Notes: generated by a model from the sequence alone, not told the origin. Counted from the first letter of the stretch, positions 9,979 to 62,487 are shown. The stretch: 64,000 bases of DNA from an uncultured bacterium (GCA_963722655.1 CAVRNT010000001.1:162612-226611), one strand, 5' to 3'. Numbers and translations are program-made.

Positions 9979-9982
9979 TTAG

Positions 9983-10069: not shown

Positions 10070-10122
10070 GTGCGTTGAACGCCGCGTCATCATAAACCGG
10101 CTGGGACGTTTTAATCAAGATT

Positions 10123-10494
10123 TCAATAATGACTGAAAATGTGGAACACGCTCCCGATTAGCGCCGTGAAACCGAAGATAAGGCCGGCGGCGATTATAAC
10201 GATGGCCACGATGGTCAATATCTTGCCGGCGTGATCGACGGCCTTGATGAAGCCGTTGTATTCGTGCTGGTTCTCGAAGTGCCGGCTCGTCGCGGCCATC
10301 TCGTGGCCTTTAATACCAAGATAGATCATAAAGACGATCCAAAAGAAGAAGTTCACGACCGGCACGAGGTAGAGCAGATACCACCAAAGCATGTGGTACT
10401 TCTTGATGGCGATTAGAAACGGCGCTCCGAAGAGGAATGCGCCCCACGACCAACCCGGCGCGGCGGTGATGCCGCCTTTTTTGGTTTCTTCCAT
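10123..10494 (-). CDS. hypothetical small membrane protein (3-4 TM)
   Basis: 123-aa hydrophobic ORF wedged between tRNA genes. Confidence 0.4.
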   Translation of the reverse strand: MEETKKGGITAAPGWSWGAFLFGAPFLIAIKKYHMLWWYLLYLVPVVNFFFWIVFMIYLGIKGHEMAATSRHFENQHEYNGFIKAVDHAGKILTIVAIVIIAAGLIFGFTALIGSVFHIFSHY

Positions 10495-10519
10495 AGGGAA
10501 ATTATAACAAACTTCGTTG

Positions 10520-10590
10520 TGGACCTACGGGGAATCGAACCCCGACCTCCTCCATGCCATGGAGATGTAATACCGTTTTACTATAGGCCC
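10520..10590 (-). tRNA. tRNA-Ala (anticodon GGC)
   Basis: G3:U70 pair in the acceptor stem, anticodon loop ATGGCAT, T-loop TTCGATT. Confidence 0.75.
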
Positions 10591-10591
10591 G

Positions 10592-10663
10592 TGGGCGTTA
10601 GAGGGATTGAACCTCTGACCTTTTCAATGTCAATGAAACGCTCTACCACTGAGCTAAACGCCC
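10592..10663 (-). tRNA. tRNA-Val (anticodon GAC)
   Basis: Acceptor GGGCGTT/AACGCCC, anticodon loop TTGACAT, T-loop TTCAATC. Confidence 0.8.
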
Positions 10664-10732
10664 GCTGACACACAATATATCAGGAGATTTGTTGCGAGAC
10701 AAGGCGATTTACATTATAAATAAGACGCCCTC

Positions 10733-10804
10733 GCCCTCGTAGCTCAACGGATAGAGCTATTCCGTCCTAAGGAAGAGATGGGGGTTCAATTCCCTCCGAG
10801 GGCA
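10733..10804 (+). tRNA. tRNA-Arg (anticodon CCT)
   Basis: Acceptor GCCCTCG/CGAGGGC, anticodon loop GTCCTAA, T-loop TTCAATT. Confidence 0.75.
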
Positions 10805-10814
10805 CAGAGCAAGT

Positions 10815-10904
10815 GGAGGGTTCGCATAGTGGTCTAGTGCGGCGCACTCGAAATGCGCTTGGGGAGAAATCCCCTCACAGGTTCGAATCCTGTACCCTCC
10901 GCCA
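10815..10904 (+). tRNA. tRNA-Ser (anticodon CGA), long variable arm, CCA encoded
   Basis: Acceptor GGAGGGT/ACCCTCC, anticodon loop CTCGAAA, T-loop GTTCGAATC. Confidence 0.8.
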
Positions 10905-17814: not shown

Positions 17815-17826
17815 TGCACTTTTGGG

Positions 17827-17897
17827 TGCGGGTAGGCGGAATCGGACCGCCGTCTCATCCTTGGCAAGGACGTGTTCTGCCACTAAACCATACCCGC
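17827..17897 (-). tRNA. tRNA-Gly (anticodon GCC)
   Basis: Acceptor GCGGGTA/TACCCGC, anticodon loop TTGCCAA, T-loop TCCGATT. Confidence 0.8.
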
Positions 17898-18064
17898 AGT
17901 CGTCACTCCGGAGGCGGACCGCTCGGCCCCTTCACGTAGGGGGCGCCGGTCGGTCCATGGAACGTTCCGGTGTATTTCGGCGTCGGCCAAAGCGCTAAAA
18001 CCAAATATATCATAAGGCCGAACAAGATGGCAATTAAAATCGAGTAGTGCCACGTTCTCATTTT

Positions 18065-18139
18065 TGGCGTCCCTACGAGGAATCGAACCTCGATCCCAGG
18101 TTCCGCAAACCTGTACTCTATCCGTTGAGCTATAGGGAC
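18065..18139 (-). tRNA. tRNA-Arg (anticodon GCG by manual fold; isotype less certain), CCA encoded
   Basis: Acceptor GTCCCTA/TAGGGAC, anticodon stem CAGGT/ACCTG with loop TTGCGGA. Confidence 0.65.
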
Positions 18140-18147
18140 AACTTTCT

Positions 18148-18657
18148 CTAGAATCCCAGGAACCGCGTGAAGATGTCCATGAAGGACTCTTCGTGTTCCA
18201 CTTCCGGCAACTTTCCTTCCAAGAACTCCCGCGCCTGCGCCGCCGTCTGGCCGTCCAAGAGGACTCGCAGGTACGGATTGAAGGACGTCTTGCGCTTCAG
18301 GACCATTTCGTCCAACCGGTTCGGCCGCTCGGTGATGCTGAAGTTCTCCAAAGCATCATAAGGGTAAAATTGCCTTTCGCCAAGATGGCAGCCGTCTTTG
18401 GTCAAGCGGCATTCCATCACCTCCGGCTTGCGCCGACCGAGCATGATCACCATCGCGGCGGCGAGGACGATGAAAACGGCGAAGAAGAAATCCTTCTGCC
18501 AAAGGGCGATCACGACGAGGAGGAGGGAAAAGGCGATGACCAAAAGATACCAGTTGAGGTCCTTTTCGTAATAGTCATGCTCCGCCGCCCGCCAGCTGAT
18601 CTCTTCGGGTGCCCGCCGCTCTGCGGTGACATTCGTTTGTTTTTTGGTCCTCGGCAT
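18148..18657 (-). CDS. hypothetical membrane protein (2 TM)
   Basis: 169-aa ORF between two tRNA genes. Hydrophobic segments at residues ~35-75. Confidence 0.45.
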   Translation of the reverse strand: MPRTKKQTNVTAERRAPEEISWRAAEHDYYEKDLNWYLLVIAFSLLLVVIALWQKDFFFAVFIVLAAAMVIMLGRRKPEVMECRLTKDGCHLGERQFYPYDALENFSITERPNRLDEMVLKRKTSFNPYLRVLLDGQTAAQAREFLEGKLPEVEHEESFMDIFTRFLGF

Positions 18658-18662
18658 TGTCT

Positions 18663-18737
18663 TGGTAGCCTCACCGGGAATCGAACCCGGATTTACGCCG
18701 TGAAAGGGCGCTGTCCTAACCGTTAGACGATAAGGCC
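18663..18737 (-). tRNA. tRNA-Glu (anticodon TTC), CCA encoded
   Basis: Anticodon stem GCGCC/GGCGT with loop CTTTCAC, T-loop TTCGATT. Confidence 0.75.
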
Positions 18738-18775
18738 TCGCTTCCCAATATACCCAAAACTCGAGCTTCGGGCAA

Positions 18776-19645
18776 TCAGACGGTGAAGCGCACGTATATT
18801 CCCGATGGCACGAGACGGCCGGAATGCGATTCCTTCACGTTCAACTCGCCGAACTCACCTTCGGTCCGAGCGGCGTCGGGGAAGGCGCCCTCGACGGTCT
18901 GACGGAAAGAGGTGGAGGAATACCCGGCGGCATAGCCGTTCAGAAGGAAGAACGAACTGGGCTTTTTCGAAAGCAGCGCGGTGAGAGTCTCGAGAAGCCG
19001 CGGCAGATCTTCCTCTATCTTCCAAACCTCACCTTTAGGCCCACGACCGAAGGCCGGCGGGTCTAAGATGATGCCGTCATAGACGGAGCCGCGGCGCTTT
19101 TCCCGTTCCGCGAACTTCAAAGCGTCGTCCAAAATGTATCGAATGCCGTCTGTCGGCGTCCCGGAAGACGCCGCGTTCTCCCTCGCCCAGGCGTTGGTCT
19201 GCTTCGAGGCGTCCACGTGCGTCACAAAGGCGCCGCTTTTCGCGGCGACGATGCTCGCGATACCGGTGTAGGCGAAGAGATTCAAGACCTGCGGACGCTC
19301 CATCTTCGGAACCCGATTCTTCAGCCACTGCCAGTTCGGCGATTGCTCCGGGAAAAGGCCGGTGTGCTTGAAGGACGTGAGGCGTACGGTGAAGCGCGCC
19401 TCGTTCCACTTGAGCCCCCACTCTTCGGGGACCCGACCTTCCTTCTTCCAGTCGCCCTTGCCGCCTGCGAAACTAAAATGCGCCGCCGCCTTCTTCCATT
19501 CCTCCGGGCGCGCCGGTTTCCAAATTGCTTGGGTTTCGGGACGGACGAGAAGAACGTCGCCGTAGCGCTCGAGCTTCTCGTTCCCGCCGGAGTCGATGAG
19601 CTCGTAATCGCTCCACGGCTCGGAGATGAGATCAAGTGCTTTCAT
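18776..19645 (-). CDS. class I SAM-dependent RNA methyltransferase (RlmI/COG1092-like)
   Basis: Motif I LNLFAYTGIASIVAA and motif IV ILDPPAFGRG, with a PUA-like N-terminal region. Confidence 0.6.
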   Translation of the reverse strand: MKALDLISEPWSDYELIDSGGNEKLERYGDVLLVRPETQAIWKPARPEEWKKAAAHFSFAGGKGDWKKEGRVPEEWGLKWNEARFTVRLTSFKHTGLFPEQSPNWQWLKNRVPKMERPQVLNLFAYTGIASIVAAKSGAFVTHVDASKQTNAWARENAASSGTPTDGIRYILDDALKFAEREKRRGSVYDGIILDPPAFGRGPKGEVWKIEEDLPRLLETLTALLSKKPSSFFLLNGYAAGYSSTSFRQTVEGAFPDAARTEGEFGELNVKESHSGRLVPSGIYVRFTV

Positions 19646-20440
19646 TTAGGACTTCAAATGATGCCGACTCCACTCGTAGAGGACGACGGCCGCCGAGATC
19701 GAGGCGTTCAGCGATTCGCATTCGGGGTTCATCGGGATGCGGAGCGCGACGTCGCAGTGCTCCAGCGTCTTTTGCCGGATACCCTCGCCTTCGTTGCCGA
19801 TGATGATGAGCGTTGGCGCCTCGAATCTCTCTTCGCGGACGTCGCGGCTCCCCGCCATGTCCAATCCGTAAGCCCGGAATCCTTTCTCCTTGAGGACGAG
19901 GACGGTCTGGTTGATGTTCCCGATTGCGACGAGCGGTATCGAAAAGACCATGCCGGCCGAGACCTTCACGACGGCGCCCGTGATCGGTGCCTGATGGTGC
20001 GGAGGGATGAGGACGCCCGCGGCGCCGAAGGCCACGGCGCTCCGGATGATGGCGCCGACGTTCTGTGGGTCGGTGAGCTCATCCAAAAGGACGAGCACGG
20101 TGTTCTCGTCAATTTTGATTCCGGCGAGGAAGATCCGAAAATCCACCATGAGTGACGTGGGGTCAATGAAGGCGATGACTCCTTGGTGCGTCGTCTCCCG
20201 GCCGACCATCTTTGAGGCGTCGTGCGATTTCATCGCCGAGGCCGTGATGCCGAGCTTCGAAAGAGCGCTCCGCAGCTCGTTATTCTCCGCGTCGGCGGAG
20301 AGGAAGACCTTCTTTATGGTGTGCGGCGCTTTCGCAAGGGCCTCCTCGAGGGCATGCTTGCCGTAGATGTATATTTTATTGCCGCGGTCGTTGCGGTCGA
20401 ACCTTTTGTGCTGTCTCGGGTTGAATCTTTTTTGGAACAT
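19646..20440 (-). CDS. TrmH/SpoU family RNA 2'-O-methyltransferase (RlmB-like)
   Basis: SpoU substrate-binding N-terminus and SPOUT motifs (LDELTDPQNVGAIIRSA, IIGNEGEGI, ESLNASISAAVVLYE). Start set at the internal Met to avoid overlapping tRNA-Ser. Confidence 0.8.
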   Translation of the reverse strand: MFQKRFNPRQHKRFDRNDRGNKIYIYGKHALEEALAKAPHTIKKVFLSADAENNELRSALSKLGITASAMKSHDASKMVGRETTHQGVIAFIDPTSLMVDFRIFLAGIKIDENTVLVLLDELTDPQNVGAIIRSAVAFGAAGVLIPPHHQAPITGAVVKVSAGMVFSIPLVAIGNINQTVLVLKEKGFRAYGLDMAGSRDVREERFEAPTLIIIGNEGEGIRQKTLEHCDVALRIPMNPECESLNASISAAVVLYEWSRHHLKS

Positions 20441-20451
20441 TGTTGAATTCT

Positions 20452-20542
20452 TGGCGGAGAGGGTGGGAGTCGAACCCACAAGAGGCTTTTAAAACCTCTA
20501 CAGTTTAGCAAACTGCTGGCTTACCATTCGCCGCACCTCTCC
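20452..20542 (-). tRNA. tRNA-Ser (anticodon GCT), long variable arm, CCA encoded
   Basis: Acceptor GGAGAGG/CCTCTCC, anticodon loop TTGCTAA, T-loop TTCGACT. Confidence 0.75.
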
Positions 20543-20597
20543 AAGATCACGCAAACGCCTTGTCTTTATATCATTCCTCTGGTAAGTTGACAACACG

Positions 20598-22004
20598 ATG
20601 CAGGAAAGACCGCCGGTCATAGTGGTGATGGGACACGTGGATCACGGGAAGACCACGCTTTTGGACTATATTCGGAAGACCGCCCTAGCCTCCCGCGAGG
20701 CGGGCGGCATTACCCAAGCGATTGGCGCCTACGAAGCGGAGTGGAAAGGGAAGAAGGTGACCTTCATTGACACGCCGGGTCACGAGGCCTTCCAGAACAT
20801 GCGCGCTTACGGCGCGCGCGTCGCCGACCTCGCGATCCTCGTCGTCGCGGCGGACGACGGCGTGAAACCCCAGACCAAGGAAGCGCTCCAGACGATCCTC
20901 ACGGCCAAGATCCCTTACGTCGTCGCTATCAATAAGATCGACAAGAACAACGCCGACCCGGAGCGCGCCAAGAAGGAGCTGCTCCAGAACGGCGTCCTTT
21001 TGGAGGGGATGGGCGGAGACGTTTCGTATCAGGAAATATCGGCCAAAACGGGTGAGGGCGTGCCGGAACTTCTGGACCTCGTGCTTCTCGCGACCGAGAT
21101 GGAAAGCTTGACGACCGACCCCGAAGCGCCCGCCTCCGGCATCGTGATGACAAGCCGACGGGATTCGCGGCGCGGCGTTTTGGTCGGCATCGTGATCAAA
21201 AACGGCGTTTTGAAAGAAGGTGACCCGATCCGGACCGCGACGGCGAGCGGCAAGGCGAAGATGATCGAGATCGGAAGTGGGGAGAAGGCGGAAGAGCTTT
21301 CACCTTGCGCTCCGGCGCTCATCATCGGTTTCGATTCTCTCCCGCGGGTGGGCGAAAGATTCACGACGGACCTGAACGAAAAGATGGATCAGTTGGAGGC
21401 TGGACCCGCCACGGCGGAGGTCGCCGAAGGCGTCGAGGCCTTAACGGTCGTCCTCAAGGCGGACGAGACCTCTTCGCTCGAGGCGCTCAAAGGCTTGGTC
21501 TTGAAATCGGCCGGCAAGTCGCCGCTCAAGGTGGTGGACGCGAGCGTGGGGAACATCACCGAGAACGACGTCAAGACCGCGGACGCGGCGAAGGCGCTCG
21601 TCATCGGCTTCAAGACGAAAATTGACCGGGCGGCCGAGAACCTCGCGGAGGGACGGCACGTCGAGATCGTGGAATCACCCATCATTTACGAACTCGAAAA
21701 GACGCTCACCGAGCGCTTGGGGAAGGTGAACCCGGCCGATCGCCGGCGGCTTGAAATCCTCGCGACCTTCGGCACGCCGAAGGGCGATGAGCAGGTCGTG
21801 GGCGGCCGCGTCGTCCTCGGGCCCATCAAGAATCAGGAAACCTTCGAAGTGTGGCAGAGCGAAGAAAAGATCGGCGAAGGGAAGATCTTGAACCTCCAAG
21901 CGCAAAAGAAGGACATCGCGGAAGCGAGCGAGGGGATGGAAGCGGGCCTCTTGGTCCAAAGCGCGACGTCCATTAAGCAGGGGAACGTGCTGATGTTCAA
22001 ATGA
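20598..22004 (+). CDS. infB: translation initiation factor IF-2 (minimal form, begins at the G domain)
   Basis: G1 VMGHVDHGKTTLLD, G3 DTPGH, G4 NKID, then the C-terminal beta-barrel domains. Only 468 aa. Followed by rbfA, the classic synteny. Confidence 0.9.
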   Translation: MQERPPVIVVMGHVDHGKTTLLDYIRKTALASREAGGITQAIGAYEAEWKGKKVTFIDTPGHEAFQNMRAYGARVADLAILVVAADDGVKPQTKEALQTILTAKIPYVVAINKIDKNNADPERAKKELLQNGVLLEGMGGDVSYQEISAKTGEGVPELLDLVLLATEMESLTTDPEAPASGIVMTSRRDSRRGVLVGIVIKNGVLKEGDPIRTATASGKAKMIEIGSGEKAEELSPCAPALIIGFDSLPRVGERFTTDLNEKMDQLEAGPATAEVAEGVEALTVVLKADETSSLEALKGLVLKSAGKSPLKVVDASVGNITENDVKTADAAKALVIGFKTKIDRAAENLAEGRHVEIVESPIIYELEKTLTERLGKVNPADRRRLEILATFGTPKGDEQVVGGRVVLGPIKNQETFEVWQSEEKIGEGKILNLQAQKKDIAEASEGMEAGLLVQSATSIKQGNVLMFK

Positions 22005-22285
22005 GGCCCTACCGTAATCTGAAGATGGCGAGTTTGATCCGGGAGGTCCTGAACGAACTTTTCCTCAAGGATTTCGATTTTAACGGCGCCCTGGTCACGA
22101 TTGCGGACGTCGAGATAGACGATAAGCTGGAGACGGCGCGGGTCAAGCTCGCGATCCTGCCGTTTGAAAAGGGGCCTGAAGCGTATAAAATGGTTGAAGA
22201 CCGGCGGCGGGAGCTCCAGTACAAGCTCGTCCGGAAGATGAACGTGAAGCCGATACCGCGTTTGAAGTTTGAAATAGCGCAATAG
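22001..22285 (+). CDS. rbfA: ribosome-binding factor A
   Basis: 94-aa KH-like protein directly downstream of infB. N-terminus RPYRNLKMASLIREVLNELF. Confidence 0.8.
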   Translation: MRPYRNLKMASLIREVLNELFLKDFDFNGALVTIADVEIDDKLETARVKLAILPFEKGPEAYKMVEDRRRELQYKLVRKMNVKPIPRLKFEIAQ

Positions 22286-22357
22286 GGCCGGATGGCGAAG
22301 AGGCAACGCGGCGGTCTGCAAAACCGCTATGCGAGGGTTCGAATCCCTCTCCGGCCT
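22286..22357 (+). tRNA. tRNA-Cys (anticodon GCA)
   Basis: Acceptor GGCCGGA/TCCGGCC, anticodon stem GCGGT/ACCGC with loop CTGCAAA. Confidence 0.75.
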
Positions 22358-22359
22358 CA

Positions 22360-22779
22360 ATGGAAATAAAACTTTTTGTGGCCACCAAAGCGTTCATACG
22401 ACACGGGGATAAGATACTTATTCTCCGTGAATCCGCCAAATACAGCGACGGTTCCAATGCCGGACGCTACGACGTCCCCGGCGGACGGGTGATTCCGGGG
22501 CAGCGTTTTGATGAAAGTATGCGTCGCGAAATAAAGGAAGAAACCGGGCTGGACGTTGATATCGGCGCACCATTCTTTGCCAACGAGTGGCGGCCGGTAG
22601 TACGCGGAGAACAGTGGCAGGTGATAGGTACGTTCTTCGTTTGCGAAAGTAAAACAAATAAGATTATCTTGAGCGAGGATCACGACGATTACCTTTGGAT
22701 AGACCCGGCCGGCTATAAGAGCTACCGGCTGATTGATAATCTAACGCCTGCGTTTGAAGCTTATCTTAAAACCATATAA
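22360..22779 (+). CDS. NUDIX hydrolase
   Basis: Nudix box GGRVIPGQRFDESMRREIKEETGL. Confidence 0.8.
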   Translation: MEIKLFVATKAFIRHGDKILILRESAKYSDGSNAGRYDVPGGRVIPGQRFDESMRREIKEETGLDVDIGAPFFANEWRPVVRGEQWQVIGTFFVCESKTNKIILSEDHDDYLWIDPAGYKSYRLIDNLTPAFEAYLKTI

Positions 22780-22800
22780 GCTTTTGTTAATGCCCGGGTG

Positions 22801-22884
22801 CTGTAACTGGTAGCCAGAGGGGACTTAAAATCCCCTGTCCGCAAGGGCGTGTGGGTTCGATTCCCACCCCGGGCACACTTCGAC
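22801..22884 (+). tRNA. tRNA-Leu (anticodon TAA), long variable arm
   Basis: Acceptor GCCCGGG/CCCGGGC, anticodon stem GGGGA/TCCCC with loop CTTAAAA. Confidence 0.8.
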
Positions 22885-50510: not shown

Positions 50511-50548
50511 CTCATCGGAAAACAAAACCGCCATTTAGGCGGTTCTTG

Positions 50549-50623
50549 CGCTCGCGACGGGATTTGAACCCGTGATCTTCCCCGTGACAGGGGGACGTGT
50601 TAACCAGGCTACACCACACGAGC
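50549..50623 (-). tRNA. tRNA-Asp (anticodon GTC)
   Basis: Acceptor GCTCGTG/CGCGAGC, anticodon stem TCCCC/GGGGA with loop CTGTCAC. Confidence 0.75.
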
Positions 50624-50770
50624 AGGACCTACTCAGGTTAATTGATGTTAAAGTATTTTTCAAATACGGCAACTTGTTGCGGCTACCCGCAACCAGAAGA
50701 GAGGTCGGTGGAAGGCGGAAGCCGTCCTCCGTATTGGAAAAGATTAGAAACCGAGGGTTTCTAAAACGCA

Positions 50771-50794
50771 GAAAAACTGCGTAAGCAGTTTTTC
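50771..50794. terminator. 10-bp perfect hairpin gaaaaactgc-gtaa-gcagtttttc between the tRNA genes
   Basis: Perfect inverted repeat with flanking A/T runs on both sides, so it could terminate in either direction. Confidence 0.5.
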
Positions 50795-50799
50795 AAGTT

Positions 50800-50873
<74 letters not shown>

Positions 50874-50935
50874 GCCGACATAATATCAGGAAATTTGAAA
50901 AAAAGCAAAGTAAATCCTATAATCTTTTCAAATAG

Positions 50936-51009
50936 GGCTGGGTAGCTCAGTTGGTAAGAGCGTGGCACTCATAACGCCAAGGTCGTGGGTCCGACTCCCA
51001 CCCCAGCCA
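50936..51009 (+). tRNA. tRNA with CAT anticodon (elongator Met or Ile2-lysidine; cannot be distinguished)
   Basis: Acceptor GGCTGGG/CCCAGCC, anticodon loop CTCATAA. Confidence 0.7.
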
Positions 51010-51022
51010 CTAAAGAAATTTT

Positions 51023-54346: not shown

Positions 54347-54385
54347 ATTCTAGTGCATTTTGGCGGATTTTAAAAGTTTATTTTG

Positions 54386-54458
54386 TCCACCCCCCGGGAA
54401 TCGAACCCGGAACCGTCTCCTTAAGAGGGAGCTGCTCTGCCAATTGAGCTAGAGGTGG
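54386..54458 (-). tRNA. tRNA-Lys (anticodon CTT)
   Basis: Acceptor CCACCTC/GGGGTGG (one G-U pair), anticodon loop CTCTTAA, T-loop TTCGATT. Confidence 0.7.
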
Positions 54459-55125: not shown

Positions 55126-55737
55126 ATGAACGAGGGAGTCGAGGGCGGATGGAGTTCAGTCGGCAATTGGCTGCTTGAACAGAATAGGAGGTTCTCGCTT
55201 TTCCAAACGGGCCGATTAAGCAGGCTTGAGCTTCTTAGAAATTACGAAATATCATCCCTCTTTCCCTGGGGTCTTATTCTGCTCATATTTCTCGGCTCGT
55301 GGGCGGTTGGCGGCGATACAAACTGGCAGCAGATGATTGGGACATCCGGCTTTGTGATTATCACGATCATCACCATCGTGGTTTACGTTGGTGCCGGACT
55401 TATCGGAGTATTCGCCGCAATCCAGCGATTTCACGATTTAGGCAAGTCAGGATGGCGAACCCTACTGCTGCTTATTCCGTTCGCGGTTCTCACTTACCCA
55501 ACTAGAGAGACTCCGAAAATATTTTTAGGGTTAAAGATTAACCCGGATGGTTCATTCTTCGAGGTGTATAACGGGCCAGGGAGATATATAAAGAAATTAG
55601 TTGTGGGACGTAAAGAACCGTATAACCGTTTGCATATTCTATCCTTAAAAAAGTTAGCCGAAATCTCGAGCAAAATACCTGCACATGAAAAAGTAAAAAC
55701 AAGAAAAGGAAAACGACCACTCACCTTTCCTCTATGA
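55126..55737 (+). CDS. DUF805-like inner-membrane protein
   Basis: Signature RFHDLGKSGWRTLLLLIPF and 3-4 TM helices. Confidence 0.5.
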   Translation: MNEGVEGGWSSVGNWLLEQNRRFSLFQTGRLSRLELLRNYEISSLFPWGLILLIFLGSWAVGGDTNWQQMIGTSGFVIITIITIVVYVGAGLIGVFAAIQRFHDLGKSGWRTLLLLIPFAVLTYPTRETPKIFLGLKINPDGSFFEVYNGPGRYIKKLVVGRKEPYNRLHILSLKKLAEISSKIPAHEKVKTRKGKRPLTFPL

Positions 55738-56291
55738 ATTTTCTAGATTTAAAATTCGAAATTGGGTTCTGGCATCCGTTTGGTCCGCATGGGGGAGAAA
55801 CCCCTGAAGAGATTATAAAAAGAAAACGGGGCGAGATTGGGAGAAACGGTTGGACTCTCTGGTCATTTCAATTCAGGAATACTCTCGGGCCCTGGTATCA
55901 GGAGATTGAGAAAATAGACCCAGGGAACGTCTTAGTCTTTTGCTCCGAAGGAAAAGGCGCGCGTGATCCCATAGGAGAGCGCAAGTATTGTAGCTATTAC
56001 ATACCCGTGGGAGAAGTTGCGCCTAGGAAGATTCCAATGGGAATACAAATCCCTCATCCTATGGGGAAGAAGACTAGGGGTTCCGCATTCATTGTTAAAA
56101 ACATTATTTGCCCCGCTGTTTACGAAGCGACGCCAATCGTATGGTTAAAGGGTAGCGGGTGGCAAACCGCACCGCTACCAACCCGGCCTGAGTATCTTAT
56201 AAAACCAGGGCAAGGTCAGCCCATGAGGAGGTTCCGGGCAGTACTTGAGCTTAAATGGCCATATCTTGCTGAGGTTGGTATTGCACATTAA
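55734..56291 (+). CDS. hypothetical protein (low-GC island)
   Basis: 185-aa ORF with no recognisable motifs. Confidence 0.3.
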   Translation: MNFLDLKFEIGFWHPFGPHGGETPEEIIKRKRGEIGRNGWTLWSFQFRNTLGPWYQEIEKIDPGNVLVFCSEGKGARDPIGERKYCSYYIPVGEVAPRKIPMGIQIPHPMGKKTRGSAFIVKNIICPAVYEATPIVWLKGSGWQTAPLPTRPEYLIKPGQGQPMRRFRAVLELKWPYLAEVGIAH

Positions 56292-56419: not shown

Positions 56420-57064
56420 TTATAGGTATCTGATTTCTCTGAGCTTTTCTAATAATTCCTTATCTGTCAAAACCGTCGTTTCGATCCTCTTGAGTCTAGT
56501 AGCGACCGCCCTAAGAAATGGCCTAGCCTCATTCCTCGTCTTGGGCTTAGCCCGTTCAATTTTTGTGATAACCCAATCTAAAACTCTTTTATCGCTGAAT
56601 ACTTTATAGGTGAGAATCTCTCTCCATAGCGCCCATAAACCAATTTTCTGTAATTTTTTCAGGGGGTTTTTGGCTAAAGTTGACGCTATCCTGAAATCAT
56701 TTCTTGTCTTGCTAATTTTGCTCCTGGGCATGTCCTTGCCTATAAGCGATGATCGTCCATAGAGTTGATTCCAAAAAATATTCTCTTCCTCAGAAGAAAC
56801 GCTGTTTTTCTCTAAAAACTTGTTGATTTTTGTACCTATAAGATACCACGCCCCTAGCATATCGTATTTGCGAGCATGGGGCGAAAGCATATTTTCTTTC
56901 ACTAAAATTCTCTCGATTTCTTTTATCTCTTTTCCTAACCTAGCGTCAAAACGATCCGCTTCCTTTATGTCTCGAGATGTAAGAATTCTTTTCGAACTTT
57001 TATATCCTTGGGATTTATCCGCCTTCTTGATTTTTATGGTCATTTTTGCTTTTTGAGATCCCAA
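56420..57064 (-). CDS. hypothetical protein, downstream partner of the GHKL ATPase gene (25-nt overlap)
   Basis: 214 aa, Lys/Arg-rich, AT-rich codons. Translationally coupled to 57040..59061. Confidence 0.5.
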   Translation of the reverse strand: MGSQKAKMTIKIKKADKSQGYKSSKRILTSRDIKEADRFDARLGKEIKEIERILVKENMLSPHARKYDMLGAWYLIGTKINKFLEKNSVSSEEENIFWNQLYGRSSLIGKDMPRSKISKTRNDFRIASTLAKNPLKKLQKIGLWALWREILTYKVFSDKRVLDWVITKIERAKPKTRNEARPFLRAVATRLKRIETTVLTDKELLEKLREIRYL

Positions 57065-59061
57065 ATGAATTCACTATAGCGCCTCAGGAATAACTGCCAC
57101 ACACCCGACACATCTTTTGATTTAACAAGATGACTAAATTCTTGGTCACTGTCGTCATCGTCGGCGATTGATTCTTCTAGTTTGATCTGAAAGGCAATGA
57201 ATATTGCTTGCTCCATTAGATATTCCGTCAGTTTTTCGAGATCACTAAGGAGTGGCTTGATACGCGGGTGAAGTTCATTGTAAAAAATGACGTGACCATC
57301 TCCCTCCGGCACCCATTCGAGTAAATAGTTCTTGTCGTCCCGCTCAACGCCCCGAAAATCGAACGGGCCTGATTCTGGTGGGTCTACCTCTACATAAAAT
57401 TTTTGATTTATCCGGTCGTACAAAATAGTGCCCTTCTCAATTTTTTTGCCGTCAGACAAAACAAGATCTTTTTTGTCTTCGAGCGAGACCATCCTTGCTC
57501 TCAATGAGTATCCGCCGGGGGTATATTTCTTGGATATCAAAATTGACCCTGCTCCTATTTCCGGCCCTCTTCCAGGGCGAAGATTTATTTCTTTTTCCTG
57601 CAAGAGTTCGGTTTTGCCTTCCGGGGAAACGACGAAAACGCGTACTAGGATATTTATATCTTCATTGATATCACTAATCGGTATCACATATGTCCCGTCA
57701 ATTTTCTCACCATAATTTACCCGCTTATTATCTCTTGGAAACTCTATGTCCGGAATCGACAGTCTCAATGGCTCCTTCTCCCTCCGAAAATGATCTTCTC
57801 GCTTTTTCTTTCCTATGTGCTTTCCAAACAATCCAAGCTTCTTAAATAATGGCGTTAAAAGCTTCAGTGCCTCAGCCTCGGCGTCTTTTTGGATTTTGTT
57901 CTTTTTTGACTGCTCCGACTCTATGATTTTTAATTCCTTAGCAAACTCTCTCGTTTTCGCTCTAAGATAATCTCTTAAGTATTTTGCTGGTTTCTGGGTC
58001 CAGCTAAAGTCGAAGTGCTCCGGCCCCTCGCATAGAATTTTCATTTCTTCCTCCAGTGGCTTGCCCTCCATTTCGAGCCATCCATAGATATCAACCATTC
58101 CCTTCTCATTAACAAGCTCATCCGCTCGAACCCTTTCGATCGTCATCCCTCCACGTTGTATGCCAATACCCCTCACCGACTCAGGAAGATTGAGATTGGG
58201 AGCATATCTCAGGACAAGGCGCTTCGTTTTATATAACGTACTTTCCTTGATGGCTTCTGGCTTGAACTCTAAACCCTCGACTCCCTTTACACTATCCTCA
58301 TACCAATAAGGAGTGCTTGCATATTTTTTACCATGTCCGTCATCAACAAAGATTTTTGATTCATATTTTTTAATAGTTTCCCAGCGCGAGCTGCTCACAA
58401 AGGAAAGCATTTGTCCTGTTTTGATAGCTTCGATCACGGACTGATCGGGATTAGTGATAAAGATCCTTGTTCCGCATGATACAAGGGGGGTTATTCCACG
58501 ATTAACACTCTCCTTAAATTCCTCTTTACCCTCTTGATCGTAATGTACCCTGAACTTGATTTGCTTGTCGCTATCCAAATAGATTTCCCCAAAGACATAC
58601 GAATTATCCGATGATCTCACAGAATCAAAAAACACTCTCCTTTTTTTTGAAGCGACTAGAAATAGTGTTTTGCCCCGTCCTCTGTTGCCCCCCTCCTCTC
58701 CTGATTTATCACTCCAATTTGAATTCAGAAAATTCGCTAGATCTTCACGCTTATCAGCCCCACTAAGAAGAATTTTATCCAACTCGCTGTCGCTAAAAAA
58801 TTTCGTCCCATTTAAGCCGCTCGTTCCCTGATCGGAGATGCAAATGACCTGCCCCTCCTTGGTGCTCATCAATGAAAAACCACACTCCCAATTCTTGCCG
58901 TGTTTTTTGTCTATTCTTGCGTCCCAGCTATTTTGAATGGCGTCTTTCTGTAAACCATCGGCCAGCCAAAGCTCATGGCCTATCTTTGTCCTATAGCCGT
59001 CAGCCAGAGCTTCTATGGCTTTTTCATTATTTGTCCTCTGGGTATATATTTTTCGTTCCAT
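57040..59061 (-). CDS. GHKL-superfamily (HATPase_c / Hsp90-MORC-like) ATPase-domain protein with a large uncharacterised C-terminal region
   Basis: Bergerat-fold motifs near the N-terminus: N-box HELWLADGLQKDAIQNSWDARIDK, G1 ISDQGTSGLNG, G2 GGNRGRGKTLF. 673 aa. Low GC. Confidence 0.65.
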   Translation of the reverse strand: MERKIYTQRTNNEKAIEALADGYRTKIGHELWLADGLQKDAIQNSWDARIDKKHGKNWECGFSLMSTKEGQVICISDQGTSGLNGTKFFSDSELDKILLSGADKREDLANFLNSNWSDKSGEEGGNRGRGKTLFLVASKKRRVFFDSVRSSDNSYVFGEIYLDSDKQIKFRVHYDQEGKEEFKESVNRGITPLVSCGTRIFITNPDQSVIEAIKTGQMLSFVSSSRWETIKKYESKIFVDDGHGKKYASTPYWYEDSVKGVEGLEFKPEAIKESTLYKTKRLVLRYAPNLNLPESVRGIGIQRGGMTIERVRADELVNEKGMVDIYGWLEMEGKPLEEEMKILCEGPEHFDFSWTQKPAKYLRDYLRAKTREFAKELKIIESEQSKKNKIQKDAEAEALKLLTPLFKKLGLFGKHIGKKKREDHFRREKEPLRLSIPDIEFPRDNKRVNYGEKIDGTYVIPISDINEDINILVRVFVVSPEGKTELLQEKEINLRPGRGPEIGAGSILISKKYTPGGYSLRARMVSLEDKKDLVLSDGKKIEKGTILYDRINQKFYVEVDPPESGPFDFRGVERDDKNYLLEWVPEGDGHVIFYNELHPRIKPLLSDLEKLTEYLMEQAIFIAFQIKLEESIADDDDSDQEFSHLVKSKDVSGVWQLFLRRYSEFIWDLKKQK

Positions 59062-59063
59062 TT

Positions 59064-59300
59064 TTACAATTTAAACTCCTTGCTCTTGGGGAAGTGAAAT
59101 TTTGATTTTATTTCACGACCCCGACGTTCAATTTCGGAAAAGATTTTTCCGACATCTTCCTCGGAATAGTCATACGCGCTCCTATTTGAACAATTACCCA
59201 AGACCTTAAGCTTTTGGAGAACAGCGTTGGTACGTTGGGTTGCTAACCTCTTGAAACGTTCCCTTTTTTCTTCGTTATTATTTTTCATATACTTAGTCAA
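59064..59300 (-). CDS. hypothetical small basic protein upstream of the GHKL gene
   Basis: 78-aa ORF ending 3 nt before the GHKL start. Could be a regulator. Confidence 0.3.
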   Translation of the reverse strand: MTKYMKNNNEEKRERFKRLATQRTNAVLQKLKVLGNCSNRSAYDYSEEDVGKIFSEIERRGREIKSKFHFPKSKEFKL

Positions 59301-59489
59301 TAACTATTATCCTTATAAGGGTACTCTACCCTTATAAAATAGTCAATACCCTTATTTATGGATATTAAAGGAGATTCTAGTGTATTCAAAAACTTGCCCT
59401 TTTCGCCCACTTATCGCCTTGTAGCGCCCTTTTAGTTATCAACTCGACTATCCTGGACGCCCTAGCGGGGTTGCGTCATCCCTTGTGGC

Positions 59490-59990
59490 ATGACCAACCA
59501 AAGTAAGGGGTCGGCAGGAGCGGCGACCCGAGTAAGCCAACCGCTCCCAGTAAAGGTCGCGTACTGCCTCTACGCGAGGAAGAGCACGGAAAGCGAGGAA
59601 CAGCAGGTCCTCTCGATCGAGAGCCAGGTGAAGGAAATGCTCCAGATTGCCGAGCGGGACGGGCTCGTAATCACCGAGATCAGGAAGGAGAGTCACTCGG
59701 CCAAGGCGACCGGGGAGCGGGAGGTGTTCAACGGGCTCCTGAAGGACATCAAGGGCGGCAAGTTCAACGGCATCCTAACCTGGGCTCCTGACCGCCTGAG
59801 CCGGAATGCAGGTGACCTCGGGTCGCTGGTCGACCTCATGGATCAGAAGCTCCTCATCGAGATACGGACCTTCAGCCAGAAGTTCACCAATAGCCCGAGC
59901 GAGAAGTTCATGCTCATGATCCTCTGCTCAACGGCCAAACTCGAGAATGACAATAAGTCCGAGAACGTGAAGCGAGGCCTCCGAACCCGG
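59490..59990 (+). pseudogene. serine recombinase (resolvase/invertase or large serine recombinase) N-terminal catalytic domain, truncated by the IS3 insertion
   Basis: Catalytic YCLYARKSTESEEQQ..SIESQ, then ILTWAPDRLSRN and LENDNKSENVKRGL. The reading frame runs into the IS right end at 59991 and stops (…EQWQYPQS*). Confidence 0.7.
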
Positions 59991-60016
59991 TGTGAGCAGT
60001 GGCAATACCCCCAAAG

Positions 60017-60826
60017 TTAAGACACTTTTTCGACAAGTTTTTGGTAACGTTCTGCGAATAAGAGTGGTGGCATCTTGAGGATGGAATGAATCCTCTGGTG
60101 ATTGTAATGCCAGACAAGGCGATGAATCTCATAGACCAGTTCTCCCAACGTCTTGAATCTCTCCGGGTCTCCCAGGTCCACTTTGAATTTGTCATAGAAA
60201 GACTCTTGGTATCCGTTTTCCCAGGGAGAGGCTTTTGCGCTCCGGGATATCCGGATGCCAAACTCCATGAGAGTTCCTTCAAAGACCTTGGATCCATATT
60301 CTCTTCCGTTGTCCGAATGAAAGATGTTCGGCCTGGGATGGAACTCCACCGCAGAGAAGAAAGCTTGAAGAATCAATGGCACTGAATGAACATTCATCAC
60401 CGCGGAGCCCACAATCTCTCTCGTGAAGAGATCTAGTACGGTCGCCAGATACAGGAACTTTCCCTGATACGGAATGTACGTGAAGTCTGCCACCCAGATG
60501 TCATTGGGAAATCTCGGATAATTGGTTTTGAGGAGATTTGGGTACGGGGTTCTCGCCACGCCCATTTTTCTTGGCTTTCTTCCTCTTCTCCGATATGCCT
60601 TTATCCCGAAGAGTCTCATCACTCTCTGAGCTCTCTTCCGGTTCACATGAAGAGCGAGCGCCACTCTCGGGTAGCCGTAGCTCGGATCCTTCGAGAGCAC
60701 CTCCTCTATCTTTGTTTTGAGTTCCCAATCCTTTGGTATTTGCTTTGAGGCGTAGTACAGACTCGATCTCGAAATACCAAGCTCACGGGCCAGTGCTCGC
60801 TTCGTCTTCTTCTGCTTCTTGATCAA
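60017..60826 (-). CDS. IS3-family transposase OrfB (DDE)
   Basis: Identical 269-aa product to 41545..42354. Confidence 0.9.
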   Translation of the reverse strand: MIKKQKKTKRALARELGISRSSLYYASKQIPKDWELKTKIEEVLSKDPSYGYPRVALALHVNRKRAQRVMRLFGIKAYRRRGRKPRKMGVARTPYPNLLKTNYPRFPNDIWVADFTYIPYQGKFLYLATVLDLFTREIVGSAVMNVHSVPLILQAFFSAVEFHPRPNIFHSDNGREYGSKVFEGTLMEFGIRISRSAKASPWENGYQESFYDKFKVDLGDPERFKTLGELVYEIHRLVWHYNHQRIHSILKMPPLLFAERYQKLVEKVS

Positions 60827-61080
60827 CGCTTTTTTTGAGTCCGGGAGGAGGCAAGAGTGAGCTCGCCCACGAGAGCGAGAAGCTCATCGTTCTGGCGCTT
60901 GAGACGAACGAGTTCACCAATGGTGGGGTTGCCTTTCACTCCTCGTCCCAGCCAGTTGTATATGGTGGCGGGATTGAGACCGTGTTCTTTGGCAGCCTGA
61001 GCGACCGGTATGCCTTCTTCCTTGATCCTCTTCAATATCTGCTCCTTCACCTCGGGAGCGATGCGGTATGTTTTCTTCAT
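60823..61080 (-). CDS. IS3-family transposase OrfA (HTH DNA-binding)
   Basis: 85-aa protein with an HTH (GIPVAQAAKEHGLNPATIYNWL) and a leucine-zipper-like C-terminus. Ends at the slippery site. Confidence 0.85.
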   Translation of the reverse strand: MKKTYRIAPEVKEQILKRIKEEGIPVAQAAKEHGLNPATIYNWLGRGVKGNPTIGELVRLKRQNDELLALVGELTLASSRTQKKR

Positions 61081-61187: not shown

Positions 61188-61475
61188 TTGTTAGCCTTTT
61201 ACAACGAAAAGAAACCGTCAACACACTATGACAAAATAGCAGTTTTCGCGTATTACATAAATGAAAACGGAAAGAAGGTTTTTTCGGAGAGCGACGTCAA
61301 GGGTTGTTATGACGAGCTGCGGCGAGTCACTAAAATACCTGGAAACTTACGGGTAACACTCCAGGACACAATTCGATATACTGGATATATCAAACGAGTG
61401 AAAAAGATGAATTACGAACTCACTTCCGCGGGCAGTAACTATGTCAACTTCCAATTACCCGGCAGTGTTAAGTGA
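61188..61475 (+). CDS. hypothetical protein
   Basis: 95-aa ORF, low GC, overlaps the next ORF. Confidence 0.3.
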   Translation: MLAFYNEKKPSTHYDKIAVFAYYINENGKKVFSESDVKGCYDELRRVTKIPGNLRVTLQDTIRYTGYIKRVKKMNYELTSAGSNYVNFQLPGSVK

Positions 61476-62238
61476 GTTGAGAGCCCGTCTCAACGCGTTT
61501 CTCGAAAAGTTACCTACCCCTCTCGAGGACCTACCCGATAACTACTCTCGTATTGGGGTTTTTATTTACTTCCTCACAATTCTTGAGGGAGAAGGGGTAG
61601 CTCTGAAAAGTTCGATATTACAGCTCTTTGACCTCGCAGACATAAATAGACCAGCTAATGTAGACAGAGACTTCCGAGAGCTGCGGAGGGTAGGAAGAAT
61701 TATTCCTCTCGATGAGGGGTTCCGCCTTCATCGTCGGGAGCAAAGGAAAATTGAGGACGATATCAGGGGAAGACAGAAAACAGTAGACCTACGAAAGGAT
61801 CTTCTAGCGTTAACGAAAAAGATTCCAAACCAACTTGAGCGAGAGTTCATTGAAGAGGCAGTTCGATGTTTTGCGACAAGACCACCGTCTAAGCGCGCGA
61901 CTGTGGTTCTCACTTGGATAACCTGCGTTGACCACCTACAAAACTTCGTCTTGGGAAGTAGGAAAAACTTAACTAAATTCAACTCAGCGCTTATAACGAC
62001 GAAACAGAGGGTCCAAAGAATATCGAAAAAGGAGAACTTCTCAGACTTAGACGAAAGTGTGTTCATTCAAAAACTGAGAGAGGCGAGGCTTATCGATACG
62101 AATATCCACAAGCAATTAAACCGCCATCTCGGCTTCCGGGATTCGTGTGCCCACCCAAACACCTTTTATGTCTCCGATCCTGCTGTGGAGGCCTACATAG
62201 AAGACTCAATCAAAAATATCCTCGTGAAATTCAAGTGA
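61441..62238 (+). CDS. hypothetical protein
   Basis: 265-aa ORF, low GC, followed by a hairpin (caaaacggcga...tcgccgtcttg) and a T-run at ~62310-62345. Confidence 0.35.
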   Translation: MSTSNYPAVLSELRARLNAFLEKLPTPLEDLPDNYSRIGVFIYFLTILEGEGVALKSSILQLFDLADINRPANVDRDFRELRRVGRIIPLDEGFRLHRREQRKIEDDIRGRQKTVDLRKDLLALTKKIPNQLEREFIEEAVRCFATRPPSKRATVVLTWITCVDHLQNFVLGSRKNLTKFNSALITTKQRVQRISKKENFSDLDESVFIQKLREARLIDTNIHKQLNRHLGFRDSCAHPNTFYVSDPAVEAYIEDSIKNILVKFK

Positions 62239-62413
62239 GATGTTAATTGAGGTACCCGCATCCACCGGTACCAAGTACTAACTGCGGACGGTGGTGATCT
62301 GGAAAAACAAAACGGCGATCGCTCGCCGTCTTGTTTTGCGCCCTTGCTTGGTGGGTTCTTAAGTCGCTCTAGCGAGGCGGGGACCCTTGTCCCTCCAACC
62401 TCGCCCTGGTCTG

Positions 62414-62487
62414 TGCCCTCGGCAGGAATTGAACCTGCAACCTCTTGGTTCGAAGCCAAGCACTCTATCCAATTGAGCTACGAGGGC
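62414..62487 (-). tRNA. tRNA-Arg (anticodon TCG)
   Basis: Acceptor GCCCTCG/CGAGGGC, anticodon stem CTTGG/CCAAG with loop CTTCGAA. Confidence 0.75.

Follow-up and report, generated by a model that had tools for sequence, protein, structure and literature searches.

The window, the whole 64-kb stretch of DNA that was analysed, contains an operon of three tightly coupled genes. Their products are a small basic protein, an ATPase of the MORC/Hsp90 DNA-clamp type and a partner that is likewise basic. On balance, we favour the view that this operon, carried in a low-GC island, is a DNA-directed GHKL clamp ATPase system of the MORC/paraMORC type that restrains foreign DNA, a preference that extends to the mechanism proposed below. 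A defence or restriction-like role is plausible from the genomic context, and is drawn from that context because the searched literature contains no experimental test of any member of the family, or of PDC-M33, a predicted PADLOC candidate system. The cassette is an uncharacterised variant of the methylase-linked ATPase systems of defence islands, and a distant cousin of PDC-M33.

Gene calls and genomic setting

The three open reading frames (ORFs) of the original prediction are confirmed on the minus strand (59064–59300, 57040–59061 and 56420–57064). They represent genes rather than chance ORFs, being conserved in ~130 (ATPase), 99–150 (partner) and more than 6,700 (small protein) database proteins. 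The features of the cassette and its surroundings are as follows.

56420–57043, minus strand: partner gene, 207 aa (homologue starts, exact database entry P0121)
57040–57270, minus strand: YN-x-x-HP motif and helical bundle of the ATPase, residues 598–673 plus stop codon (conservation, model)
57271–57771, minus strand: two Ig-like β-sandwich domains, residues 431–597 (model, Foldseek, charge)
57832–58356, minus strand: S5-fold transducer and two long helices (359–409), residues 236–410 (model secondary structure, Foldseek)
58357–59061, minus strand: Bergerat (GHKL) ATP-binding domain, residues 1–235 (invariant columns, Foldseek)
59064–59288, minus strand: small leader gene, 74 aa (profile search, exact entry P0387)
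59313–59365, minus strand: conserved promoter/operator leader (DNA-level alignment with other leaders)
59490–60020, plus strand: N-terminal fragment of a serine recombinase, 176 aa, divergent and cut off by an insertion sequence (IS) (Pfam Resolvase, 4.9e-21; partial NCBIfam matches of CcrB/XisF type)
60017–61080, minus strand: IS3-family IS with orfA (60823–61080) and orfB (60017–60826) (Pfam rve, rve_3 and HTH_21 in orfB; ORF layout)

The partner start is assigned to the ATG at 57043 from its context (aaaaATGAcc), from the MxIKI beginning of all homologues and from the exact 207-aa entry. The partner is thus basic, as described originally (pI 10.2), but 207 rather than 214 aa long, and the 25-nt overlap with the ATPase gene, which arose from taking the first TTG as the partner start, is replaced by a 4-nt ATGA overlap. 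The 78-aa upstream ORF exists and reaches to a TTG at 59300, but its start is most likely the ATG at 59288, which agrees with the 74-aa entry; its stop lies 2 nt, not 3 nt, before the ATPase ATG. This 2-nt spacing, together with the ATGA overlap, argues for obligate coupling of the three genes.

The pairing of ATPase and partner is borne out in other genomes, the partner gene adjoining the ATPase gene downstream in all 24-odd loci examined, from Patescibacteria to Bathyarchaeota. The ATPase family is rare (~130 sequences among 5.8 billion searched) and patchy in its spread, with members in Patescibacteria, Proteobacteria, Ignavibacteria, Verrucomicrobia, Chloroflexi and Bathyarchaeota, and it was not found in 72,556 plasmids, 50,697 phage genomes or IMG/VR. 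The small gene, far from being an accessory, is the most widespread component (6,729 proteins in the profile search) and stands directly upstream of the ATPase gene in all crown-group loci.

The host is probably a member of the Patescibacteria (CPR), with the cassette in a low-GC chromosomal island. The cassette is AT-rich, as first noted (GC of 42–44%, versus 55–60% in most of the window), and the adjoining recombinase and IS are a resolvase-type fragment and an IS3-family element. No att-like direct repeats flanking the island or tied to the flanking tRNAs were found, and an Rfam scan returned only the two tRNAs. Custom methylase and Vsr HMMs match nothing in the window, the copy in the window is accompanied by none of its relatives' methylase or nuclease genes, and its closest relatives all lack Dcm and Vsr. 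Linkage to methylase and Vsr genes occurs in about 8 of about 24 distinct family loci: the operons of L006, L018, L020, L023 and L096 include a fused-in C5 methylase, L014, L022 and L079 have one close by, and Vsr is present in at least five loci. Nucleases (HNH, SduA_C, Vsr-like) are found in some loci only; an SduA_C nuclease gene overlaps the end of the partner gene in L007, HNH is present in L003 and Schlafen/AlbA_2 in L022. AbiEii, M78 with DUF4411, and Panacea antitoxins also lie near family loci. Serine recombinases are among the recurrent neighbours, yet they occur in a minority of loci. The top 25 families represented by 118 flanking proteins include no superfamily II helicase, and neither do the 10 immediately downstream genes. 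An apparent polymorphism between L001 and L002 at the recombinase is a difference in gene calling, the DNA being 99% identical. With methylase, Vsr, Shedu, HNH and Schlafen neighbours, these contexts resemble variable or defence islands, in keeping with the setting first suggested.

Architecture of the ATPase and its partner

The Bergerat-fold motifs claimed for the 673-aa protein are real and do not vary among 51 homologues, the most distant of which are only 27% identical. In the N-box (QKDAIQNSWDA), with Asp40 at the position of the catalytic base and Asn44, the invariant residues are Q38, D40, Q43, N44, W46 and D47; in G1 (DQGTSGLNG) they are D77, G79, G82, L83 and G85, and in G2 (GGNRGRGK) G125, G128, G130 and K131. 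Motif IV (G197-T198) is likewise invariant in the family. The transducer contains a loop, IQRGGM, with an invariant Q302 and a near-invariant R303, which we infer to contact the γ-phosphate of ATP. Directly past the last S5 helix, E345-x3-H349 (CEGPEH) is invariant in the 51 sequences, and H598 is invariant within the YN-x-x-HP motif. Motifs I–IV in order, together with the Bergerat fold, place the protein in the GHKL superfamily. Its catalytic base is Asp40, where Glu is usual and where the five inspected sister classes have Glu.

The AlphaFold model of the ATPase (pLDDT of 87) matches many GHKL ATPase structures with a Foldseek probability of 1.00, including SMCHD1 (PDB entry 6mw7), TRAP1 (4iyn), HSP90B (8eob), Topo VI-B (9o8z) and Topo II (E of 2e-9 to 2e-5). 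The alignments, of 400–475 columns, cover the ATPase domain and the transducer together, which assigns the protein to the S5-transducer branch of GHKL proteins (MutL, Hsp90, type II topoisomerases and MORC) and upholds the Hsp90/MORC-like identity originally proposed. The best structural matches are SMCHD1, TRAP1 and HSP90B, with 410–475 aligned columns at an identity of 12–13%. Sequence and profile searches against the PDB returned nothing for the ATPase, and none of the 51 homologues matches Pfam. No HisKA, MutL, HSP90 or other family was matched by the ATPase in Pfam or NCBIfam, nor was a STAS or receiver domain, and a housekeeping identity thus finds no match in either database. Scanned against Pfam, NCBIfam and PADLOC, the three proteins gave nothing usable apart from a marginal match of the ATPase to PDC-M33A.

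The ~500 residues described as lacking a recognisable domain are accounted for by the S5 transducer and the pair of long helices behind it, then by two β-sandwiches of Ig-like fold and, at the C-terminus, a helical tail. A basic, disordered linker (residues 411–430, with a pLDDT below 50 at residues 415–428) precedes the Ig-like region (residues 431–597), which is acidic (pI 5.0), is all-β in the model between residues 432 and 595, and has Foldseek matches to RbmA, transglutaminase C-terminal barrels and NPC2. The C-terminal helical bundle may be a constitutive dimerisation end, by analogy with MutL and Hsp90. Its signature, (I/Y)N-x-x-(H/F)P followed by helices, recurs in c7, c8 and c11 among the sister classes and, in a looser form, in c9, with weak profile matches between this region and the sister classes (3–8% probability).

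The partner is strongly charged (net charge about +23) and all-α with an N-terminal β-hairpin; its invariant residues include R114-N115-D116-F117, W137, R141-E142, D151, R153, R170 and R174. The effector fold that was expected in the C-terminal half of the ATPase or in the partner was not found, and the partner gave no sign of a nuclease, HEPN or membrane fold. Sequence and profile searches of the PDB returned nothing for it, and an exhaustive profile search for fusions to effectors gave only stand-alone proteins, ten distant ones carrying no Pfam domain. It also lacks the Toprim and winged-helix (Spo11/Top6A) fold of a type IIB topoisomerase. The possibility that it is the split-off C-terminal domain of a single-gene class of ~800 aa was discarded, as hhalign shows no relation to any other class.

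The small leader gene and its sister cassettes

The small protein (pI 9.9) has two predicted helices flanking an invariant LGN-x-SN...Y-x-Y loop and matches nothing in Pfam, NCBIfam or PADLOC. Its upstream DNA contains a putative promoter, with a −35 element TTGACT (59346–59341) and a −10 element TACCCT (59323–59318). A 25-nt palindrome, TTATAAGGG-N7-CCCTTATAA (59337–59313), occupies the −35/−10 spacer; its folding z-score is −3.7, with none of 200 shuffles folding equally well, and a palindrome of the same type is found in 11 of 105 leaders, versus about 1% of control windows. A consensus promoter scan did not report this site, so the assignment rests on conservation: at the DNA level, the leader aligns with those of loci bearing different downstream cassettes. 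A degenerate DnaA-box-like sequence, ATATCCATA, lies at 59365–59357. The exact box, TTATCCACA, is carried by 15 of 105 leaders, where about 0.6 would be expected, but it is confined to one subclade. Because the copy in the window has two mismatches, regulation of this operon through a DnaA box is unsupported.

At least six cassette types begin with the small gene and its promoter; of these, four have sequence or profile evidence for a GHKL protein and two have motifs only. For cluster 1, the GHKL assignment is by motifs, a profile comparison with the window family being not significant and sequence and profile searches of the PDB returning nothing; class c9 is tied to the GHKL set by motifs and by its similarity to c8 only. 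In sister cassettes, DnaA domain IV is fused either to the small protein or to the ATPase, and these Rosetta-stone fusions speak for a single complex in which the small protein and the ATPase act with a DNA-binding module. A broader and more doubtful proposal, which we put forward tentatively, is that the 74-aa leader and its promoter are the common head of a large and undescribed supersystem of MORC-like clamp ATPases concentrated in CPR. PDC-M33 and the window cassette would then be two of at least six interchangeable bodies, and DNA would be recognised through swappable modules: in the window the basic partner unique to it, elsewhere a DnaA domain IV joined to either the small protein or the ATPase.

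Known systems, alternative readings and a possible mechanism

PDC-M33 comprises a GHKL ATPase of ~630 aa (PDC-M33A), a protein of ~286 aa (PDC-M33B) and a DUF6339 protein (PDC-M33C). Its ATPase module is homologous to that of the window (hhalign probability of 97.8%, E of 1e-12, residues 33–354), and weak collinear HMM matches to PDC-M33A occur in 11 of the 51 members of the window family. The window ATPase itself matches PDC-M33A over residues 45–158 only (E of 0.011, 12.5 bits) rather than over its full length, whereas a genuine member, L041, matches the whole model (2.6e-111). The two proteins differ in their catalytic base (Asp in the window, Glu in PDC-M33A), and the C-terminal 320 residues of the window ATPase, the Ig-like region and helical tail, are unrelated to PDC-M33A. 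Neither PDC-M33B nor PDC-M33C is present in the window, the 207-aa partner is unrelated to both (hhalign probability of 0.1–0.2%), and PADLOC has no match for it or for eight partners from other loci. The small leader gene of the window also stands at the head of genuine PDC-M33 loci (L041, L059, L072, L089, L090 and L117), and PDC-M33 loci are often flanked by Dcm and Vsr. The claim that the cassette corresponds to no named defence system has to be qualified by its distant kinship to PDC-M33A and its fit to the paraMORC theme.

Prokaryotic MORC and paraMORC ATPases of restriction-modification (R-M) systems were described by Iyer, Abhiman & Aravind in 2008, with ExxxH at the C-terminal end of S5 as the signature of paraMORC2 (PMC2292703). 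Prokaryotic MORC-like ATPases were predicted in that year to function in restriction-like systems and to be the ancestors of the eukaryotic chromatin-silencing MORC proteins and SMCHD1. The window ATPase has the same GHKL and S5 architecture, with E345 and H349 corresponding to ExxxH at the motif level, and its family is like the paraMORCs in its sporadic bacterial and archaeal distribution and, at some of its loci, in its neighbours (cytosine methylases, Vsr and HNH). It differs from them in having no conserved neighbourhood of helicase and/or restriction-fold nuclease genes, and the obligate partner, small leader and Ig-like domains are not among the paraMORC features in the available excerpts of that paper (PMC2292703). 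As for MORC proper, none of the 51 members matches HATPase_c_3 at E ≤ 0.1, and the S5 motif GhXhhpXXRhl, read by eye, does not fit the candidate segment GIGIQRGGMTIER. In comparison with SMCHD1 and MORC2, the window ATPase lacks CW, hinge and coiled-coil domains, and has a prokaryotic context and a dedicated partner. VcSduA, a Shedu type I-D protein experimentally shown to be anti-phage, is a GHKL ATPase fused to a DUF4263 nuclease; the middle domain of the ATPase is clamp-like, and control of the nuclease by the ATPase has been proposed (PMC12137116). By contrast, the three window proteins contain no DUF4263/SduA_C PD-(D/E)xK domain, and the window contains no Shedu nuclease.

MutL of Escherichia coli stimulates Vsr, and the GHKL and S5 architecture is common to MutL. 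The genes most commonly linked to the family encode C5 methylases and T:G repair enzymes of the Vsr or EndoIII type and frequently share its operon, as would suit a MutL-like accessory of cytosine-methylation housekeeping that aids Dcm/Vsr very-short-patch repair or reads 5mC and does not attack foreign DNA. We consider this unlikely, since the window and its closest relatives keep an intact cassette under strong conservation without Dcm or Vsr, other copies adjoin Shedu, HNH, Schlafen and abortive-infection genes, and Dcm–Vsr pairs are themselves typical of R-M modules (PMC2292703). Marginally less probable again is that the cassette serves an integrative element, mobilised by the serine recombinase, as a selfish module for maintenance, partition or addiction, with an NTPase and a centromere-binding-like protein as a pair, or as an island stabiliser. 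Against it, the recombinase is truncated by the IS while the cassette is intact, recombinases accompany a minority of loci, the island is without att-like repeats, the family is absent from the plasmid and viral collections searched, and similarity to ParB is weak.

A purely regulatory role, in which a kinase–repressor pair (CapK/CapS-like or an anti-sigma kinase) or a sensor kinase would only control other genes, is very improbable. Like CapK/CapS, the cassette combines a GHKL protein with a small basic protein at the operon head, preceded by a palindromic operator, and many different operons begin with the small gene; CapK/CapS, a GHKL protein and a small DNA-binding protein heading diverse immune operons with palindromic operators, demonstrates that such pairs can regulate immune operons (PMC13373217). 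The architecture is different, however, and CapK/CapS-type regulation is rejected on that ground: CapK is an HTH-STAS-SpoIIAB-type kinase and CapS a 184-aa STAS-wHTH protein (PMC13373217), whereas the window ATPase has no HisKA, STAS or receiver domain, carries an S5 transducer and matches SMCHD1, Hsp90 and topoisomerases rather than kinases; moreover, there is no downstream gene in the window to regulate. Least probable of all is that the ATPase works as an Hsp90-like housekeeping chaperone assisted by a co-chaperone. The leading structural matches do include TRAP1 and HSP90B, but Pfam and NCBIfam give no HSP90 match, the family is rare and patchy, it is set in low-GC islands with mobile-element and R-M genes, and both companion proteins are strongly basic.

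For the favoured reading, a clamp that restrains foreign DNA, the following mechanism can be proposed. Binding of ATP would dimerise the N-terminal gates while the C-terminal helical bundle keeps the dimer joined, so that the ATPase would close as a ring on DNA, like MORC, SMCHD1, MutL and Topo VI-B. SMCHD1 and MORCs silence chromatin. MORC2 is reported to compact DNA (PMC12216690). The basic partner would provide DNA binding or the choice of target, a role for which sister cassettes may use PDC-M33B and PDC-M33C, or DnaA-domain-IV modules that are either fused or encoded alongside, and the small protein would be a shared subunit or autoregulator of the whole ATPase radiation. The outcome would be restriction-like or silencing, with self DNA presumably marked by the linked Dcm-type methylase, where present, and cleavage potentially supplied by the variable HNH, Shedu or Schlafen neighbours. 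With neither a methylase nor a nuclease in the window, the copy described here would have to rely on clamping or silencing, or else on genes elsewhere in the genome.

Direct experimental work on stand-alone bacterial MORC-like ATPases is almost absent from the searched literature. The cassette, being minimal, free of nuclease and methylase, and equipped with an obligate partner of DNA-binding type, offers a clean system in which to ask whether a bacterial MORC-like clamp alone restrains foreign DNA. If the supersystem proposed above is real, no nuclease would be needed in its minimal three-gene form, and the perfect DnaA box of some leader promoters would hint that an immune or silencing apparatus senses DnaA status or sequences of the replication-origin type. 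Through the small leader gene, the window family forms a single modular group with PDC-M33 and a number of unannotated ATPase classes, and one 74-aa profile provides a simple handle on such systems in the genomes of CPR, a group with little-known defence repertoires.

Gene content and setting of the cassette

The cassette is a methylase-linked ATPase system of the paraMORC type, and a distant sister of the PADLOC candidate PDC-M33, a computational prediction composed of a GHKL ATPase (A), B and a DUF6339 protein (C). The three minus-strand open reading frames (ORFs) of the original prediction (59064-59300, 57040-59061 and 56420-57064) are present and are real genes, since each has database homologues: ~130 for the ATPase, down to 27% identity; 99 for the partner, with 150 clusters in a search of 1.84 billion representatives; and 6,729 for the small protein in a database search, ~50 times the ATPase family. 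The proposed 25-nt overlap of partner and ATPase proved wrong. The junction reads aaaaATGAcc, every partner homologue begins with MxIKI and an exact 207-aa entry was found, which places the partner start at 57043, where the sequence ATGA forms a 4-nt overlap with the ATPase stop. A gap of 2 nt separates the end of the small gene from the ATPase ATG, and the small gene most likely encodes 74 residues rather than the 78 first proposed.

Features of the cassette and adjoining element
59064-59300, minus strand: small gene, longest ORF
59064-59288, minus strand: small gene from its likely ATG at 59288 (exact 74-aa database entry P0387)
57040-59061, minus strand: ATPase gene (ORF)
56420-57043, minus strand: partner gene from its ATG (ORF to 57064)
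59490-61080: serine recombinase fragment, broken off after 176 codons, and IS3-family element
60823-61080, minus strand: IS3-family orfA
60017-60826, minus strand: IS3-family orfB

The AT-rich island was confirmed (GC 42-44%, against 55-60% over most of the window), flanked by tRNA-Lys (54385-54458) and tRNA-Arg (62413-62487), as were the adjoining recombinase, a resolvase-type fragment severed by the IS3-family element, and the IS itself. No C-terminal part of the recombinase was evident downstream of the element. The window holds 16 tRNA genes in several clusters (9982-10904, 17823-22876 and 50548-51010), a high density for 64 kb. On the plus strand, a 95-aa ORF (61188-61475) overlaps the start of a 265-aa ORF (61441-62238) whose C-terminus has the motif R-x4-H (FRDSCAHP) and which matches HepT/HEPN marginally (E 0.033); the two (61188-62238) may be a toxin/abortive-infection pair of the HEPN type within this island. 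A DUF805/DUF6998 membrane protein and a 185-aa ORF that overlaps it (55126-56291, plus strand) run convergently with the partner gene, an arrangement shared with L130, an independent metagenome contig.

The gene pair recurs in other genomes, with the partner immediately 3' of the ATPase wherever DNA is present. This covers 28 loci retrieved through the ATPase, including Gammaproteobacteria, Ignavibacteria, Verrucomicrobia, Chloroflexi and Bathyarchaeota. The small gene lies directly upstream of the ATPase in all crown-group loci, and an unrelated ~350-aa gene takes its place in the deepest branch. Translational coupling in the cassette is obligate. The ATPase family had no member in PLSDB plasmids, INPHARED phages or IMG/VR. 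The gene directly 3' of the partner differs between loci.

Genes directly after the partner, by database locus
C5 cytosine methylase: L006, L018, L020, L023, L096
DUF2130: L008, L017
Schlafen/AlbA_2: L022
Shedu nuclease (SduA_C): L007
Small HNH: L003

The commonest families among 118 further flanking proteins are Vsr (4), C5 methylases, Panacea antitoxins, serine recombinases and Vsr-like REase domains (3 each), and AbiEii and M78+DUF4411 also occur near some loci. Custom methylase and Vsr HMMs placed Dcm and Vsr beside many copies and found neither in the 64 kb of the window, which is thus the bare three-gene form. At L006 (9650-11695), the C5 methylase is fused into a distant cassette as a 681-aa protein, with a ~320-residue N-terminal extension and the methylase domain at residues 325-645.

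ATPase fold and relation to known systems

Pfam, NCBIfam and PDB sequence searches did not recognize the ATPase, the partner or the small protein, and none of 51 ATPase homologues matched Pfam GHKL models. The AlphaFold2 model of the ATPase (pLDDT 87) matches modules that pair an ATPase with a transducer, those of SMCHD1, TRAP1, HSP90B, Topo VI-B and Topo II (E 2e-9 to 2e-5, 400-475 columns), and this predicted structure settles its identity as a GHKL protein of that type. The N-terminal Bergerat fold named earlier is borne out, its ATP-site residues being invariant. In the transducer, Q302 is invariant and R303 near-invariant; the motif E345-x3-H349 is invariant, and the catalytic-base position is Asp40, against Glu in the five sister classes inspected. 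The ~500 residues said to lack a recognizable domain indeed have no Pfam or NCBIfam match, but the model resolves a transducer and, past residue 410, a disordered basic linker, two Ig-like β-sandwiches (structural matches to RbmA and transglutaminase-type domains) and a helical tail opening with an invariant YNxxHP. The signature '(I/Y)N-x-x-(H/F)P', with helices after it, is shared near the C-terminus by ATPase classes that otherwise cannot be aligned, c0 (that of the window, residues 592-599), c7, c8 and c11, and may be a common docking or dimerization module.

The three genes had been matched to no named defence system, which holds only in part. Weak collinear matches to PDC-M33A were found for 11 of 51 homologues, and an hhalign comparison links the ATPase module of the window protein with PDC-M33A (97.8%, E 1e-12, residues 33-354); by the same method the C-terminal half is unrelated to PDC-M33A, and the partner to M33B or M33C. 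Full-length PDC-M33 occurs behind the same small gene (A 2.6e-111, B 7.8e-57, C/DUF6339 2e-44). The PADLOC A/B/C loci so headed are L041 (3833-7690), L059, L072, L089, L090 and L117. As the small gene precedes PDC-M33 loci and the window's small protein matches no PADLOC model, PDC-M33 as modelled may lack a fourth component. The literature searched held no mention of PDC-M33 or DUF6339. The description of paraMORC, especially paraMORC2 (Iyer et al. 2008, PMC2292703), resembles this system in its ExxxH motif and methylase/Vsr/HNH neighbourhoods, but reports a helicase association that was not seen in the neighbourhoods here. CapK/CapS (PMC13373217) was rejected, its architecture being unlike the cassette.

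The shared leader gene and its DNA

Approximately 100 loci sampled through the small protein show it heading at least six downstream architectures, the window-type GHKL-plus-partner cassette accounting for only ~1/8 of the classifiable loci. The strength of the GHKL evidence differs by class.

Basis of the GHKL assignment for sister ATPase classes
c4 (PDC-M33A): strong profile similarity to the window family
c7: Pfam HATPase_c_3 match; weaker profile similarity
c11: Pfam HATPase_c_3 match
c8: weaker profile similarity to the window family
c9: N-box/G1/G2 motifs and similarity to c8
c1: N-box/G1/G2 motifs only

Loci L029 and L030 carry an identical 74-aa small protein before two unrelated cassettes, with flanks also unrelated; their DNA (5889-6229 in both) is 86% similar only over ~110 nt of leader and the small gene, up to its stop codon, a pattern that points to cassettes being exchanged at the small gene, or to strong constraint acting on it independently. 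In IMG/VR, more distant homologues (26-53% identity) lie on 15 contigs classed as viral (L115-L129), some of which (L117, L121) carry PDC-M33-like or ~800-aa cassettes and Dcm/Vsr after the small gene.

The conserved leader DNA has a -35 TTGACT and a -10, with a palindrome spanning the spacer (window 59346-59313; palindrome folding z = -3.7). A perfect DnaA box, TTATCCACA, abuts the -35 in 15 of 105 unique leaders, a subclade, against ~0.6 expected by chance (L029, L030, L036, L039, L040, L049 and L003 among them); the window box (59357-59365) is degenerate, ATATCCATA, with two mismatches. DnaA-domain-IV modules are fused to the small-protein N-terminus at four loci (L017:7383-7961, L056:2297-2884, L062:1214-1798 and L078:101-694) and to the ATPase C-terminus in two other classes (L030:6885-9680 and L092:6218-8239), a stand-alone module lies alongside the cassette at L033 (8958-10106), and none was found in the window. 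The fusions argue that small protein, ATPase and DNA-binding module form a single working complex, in which the basic partner would fill the DNA-binding slot for cassettes of the window's class.

Possible roles

Established for the system are invariant ATP-site residues, Asp taking the place of the catalytic base, together with a transducer and two basic companions. ATP-driven N-gate dimerization of a C-terminally held dimer could close a clamp on DNA, targeted or loaded by the partner, with the small protein as shared subunit and/or autorepressor at the palindrome. The role we lean towards is restraint of foreign DNA. It would resemble restriction at loci linked to Dcm and nucleases; the bare form in the window would act by clamping or silencing, or rely on unlinked genes. 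The reading as a defence operon is partly supported, by the coupled pair and the defence-gene contexts; no effector is evident.

A MutL-like helper of Dcm/Vsr repair, favoured by Dcm and Vsr beside many copies and opposed by their absence from the window, we consider unlikely; a module that maintains an island carried by a recombinase, against which the severed recombinase here speaks, is a shade less probable. A kinase-repressor regulator, favoured by the leader palindrome and opposed by the transducer-bearing fold, is very improbable, and a chaperone, despite the structural matches to TRAP1 and HSP90B alongside SMCHD1 and the topoisomerases, is the least credible. A very large small-protein family joins several ATPase cassette types, and the minimal architecture and shared leader make open questions on bacterial MORC-like proteins directly testable.
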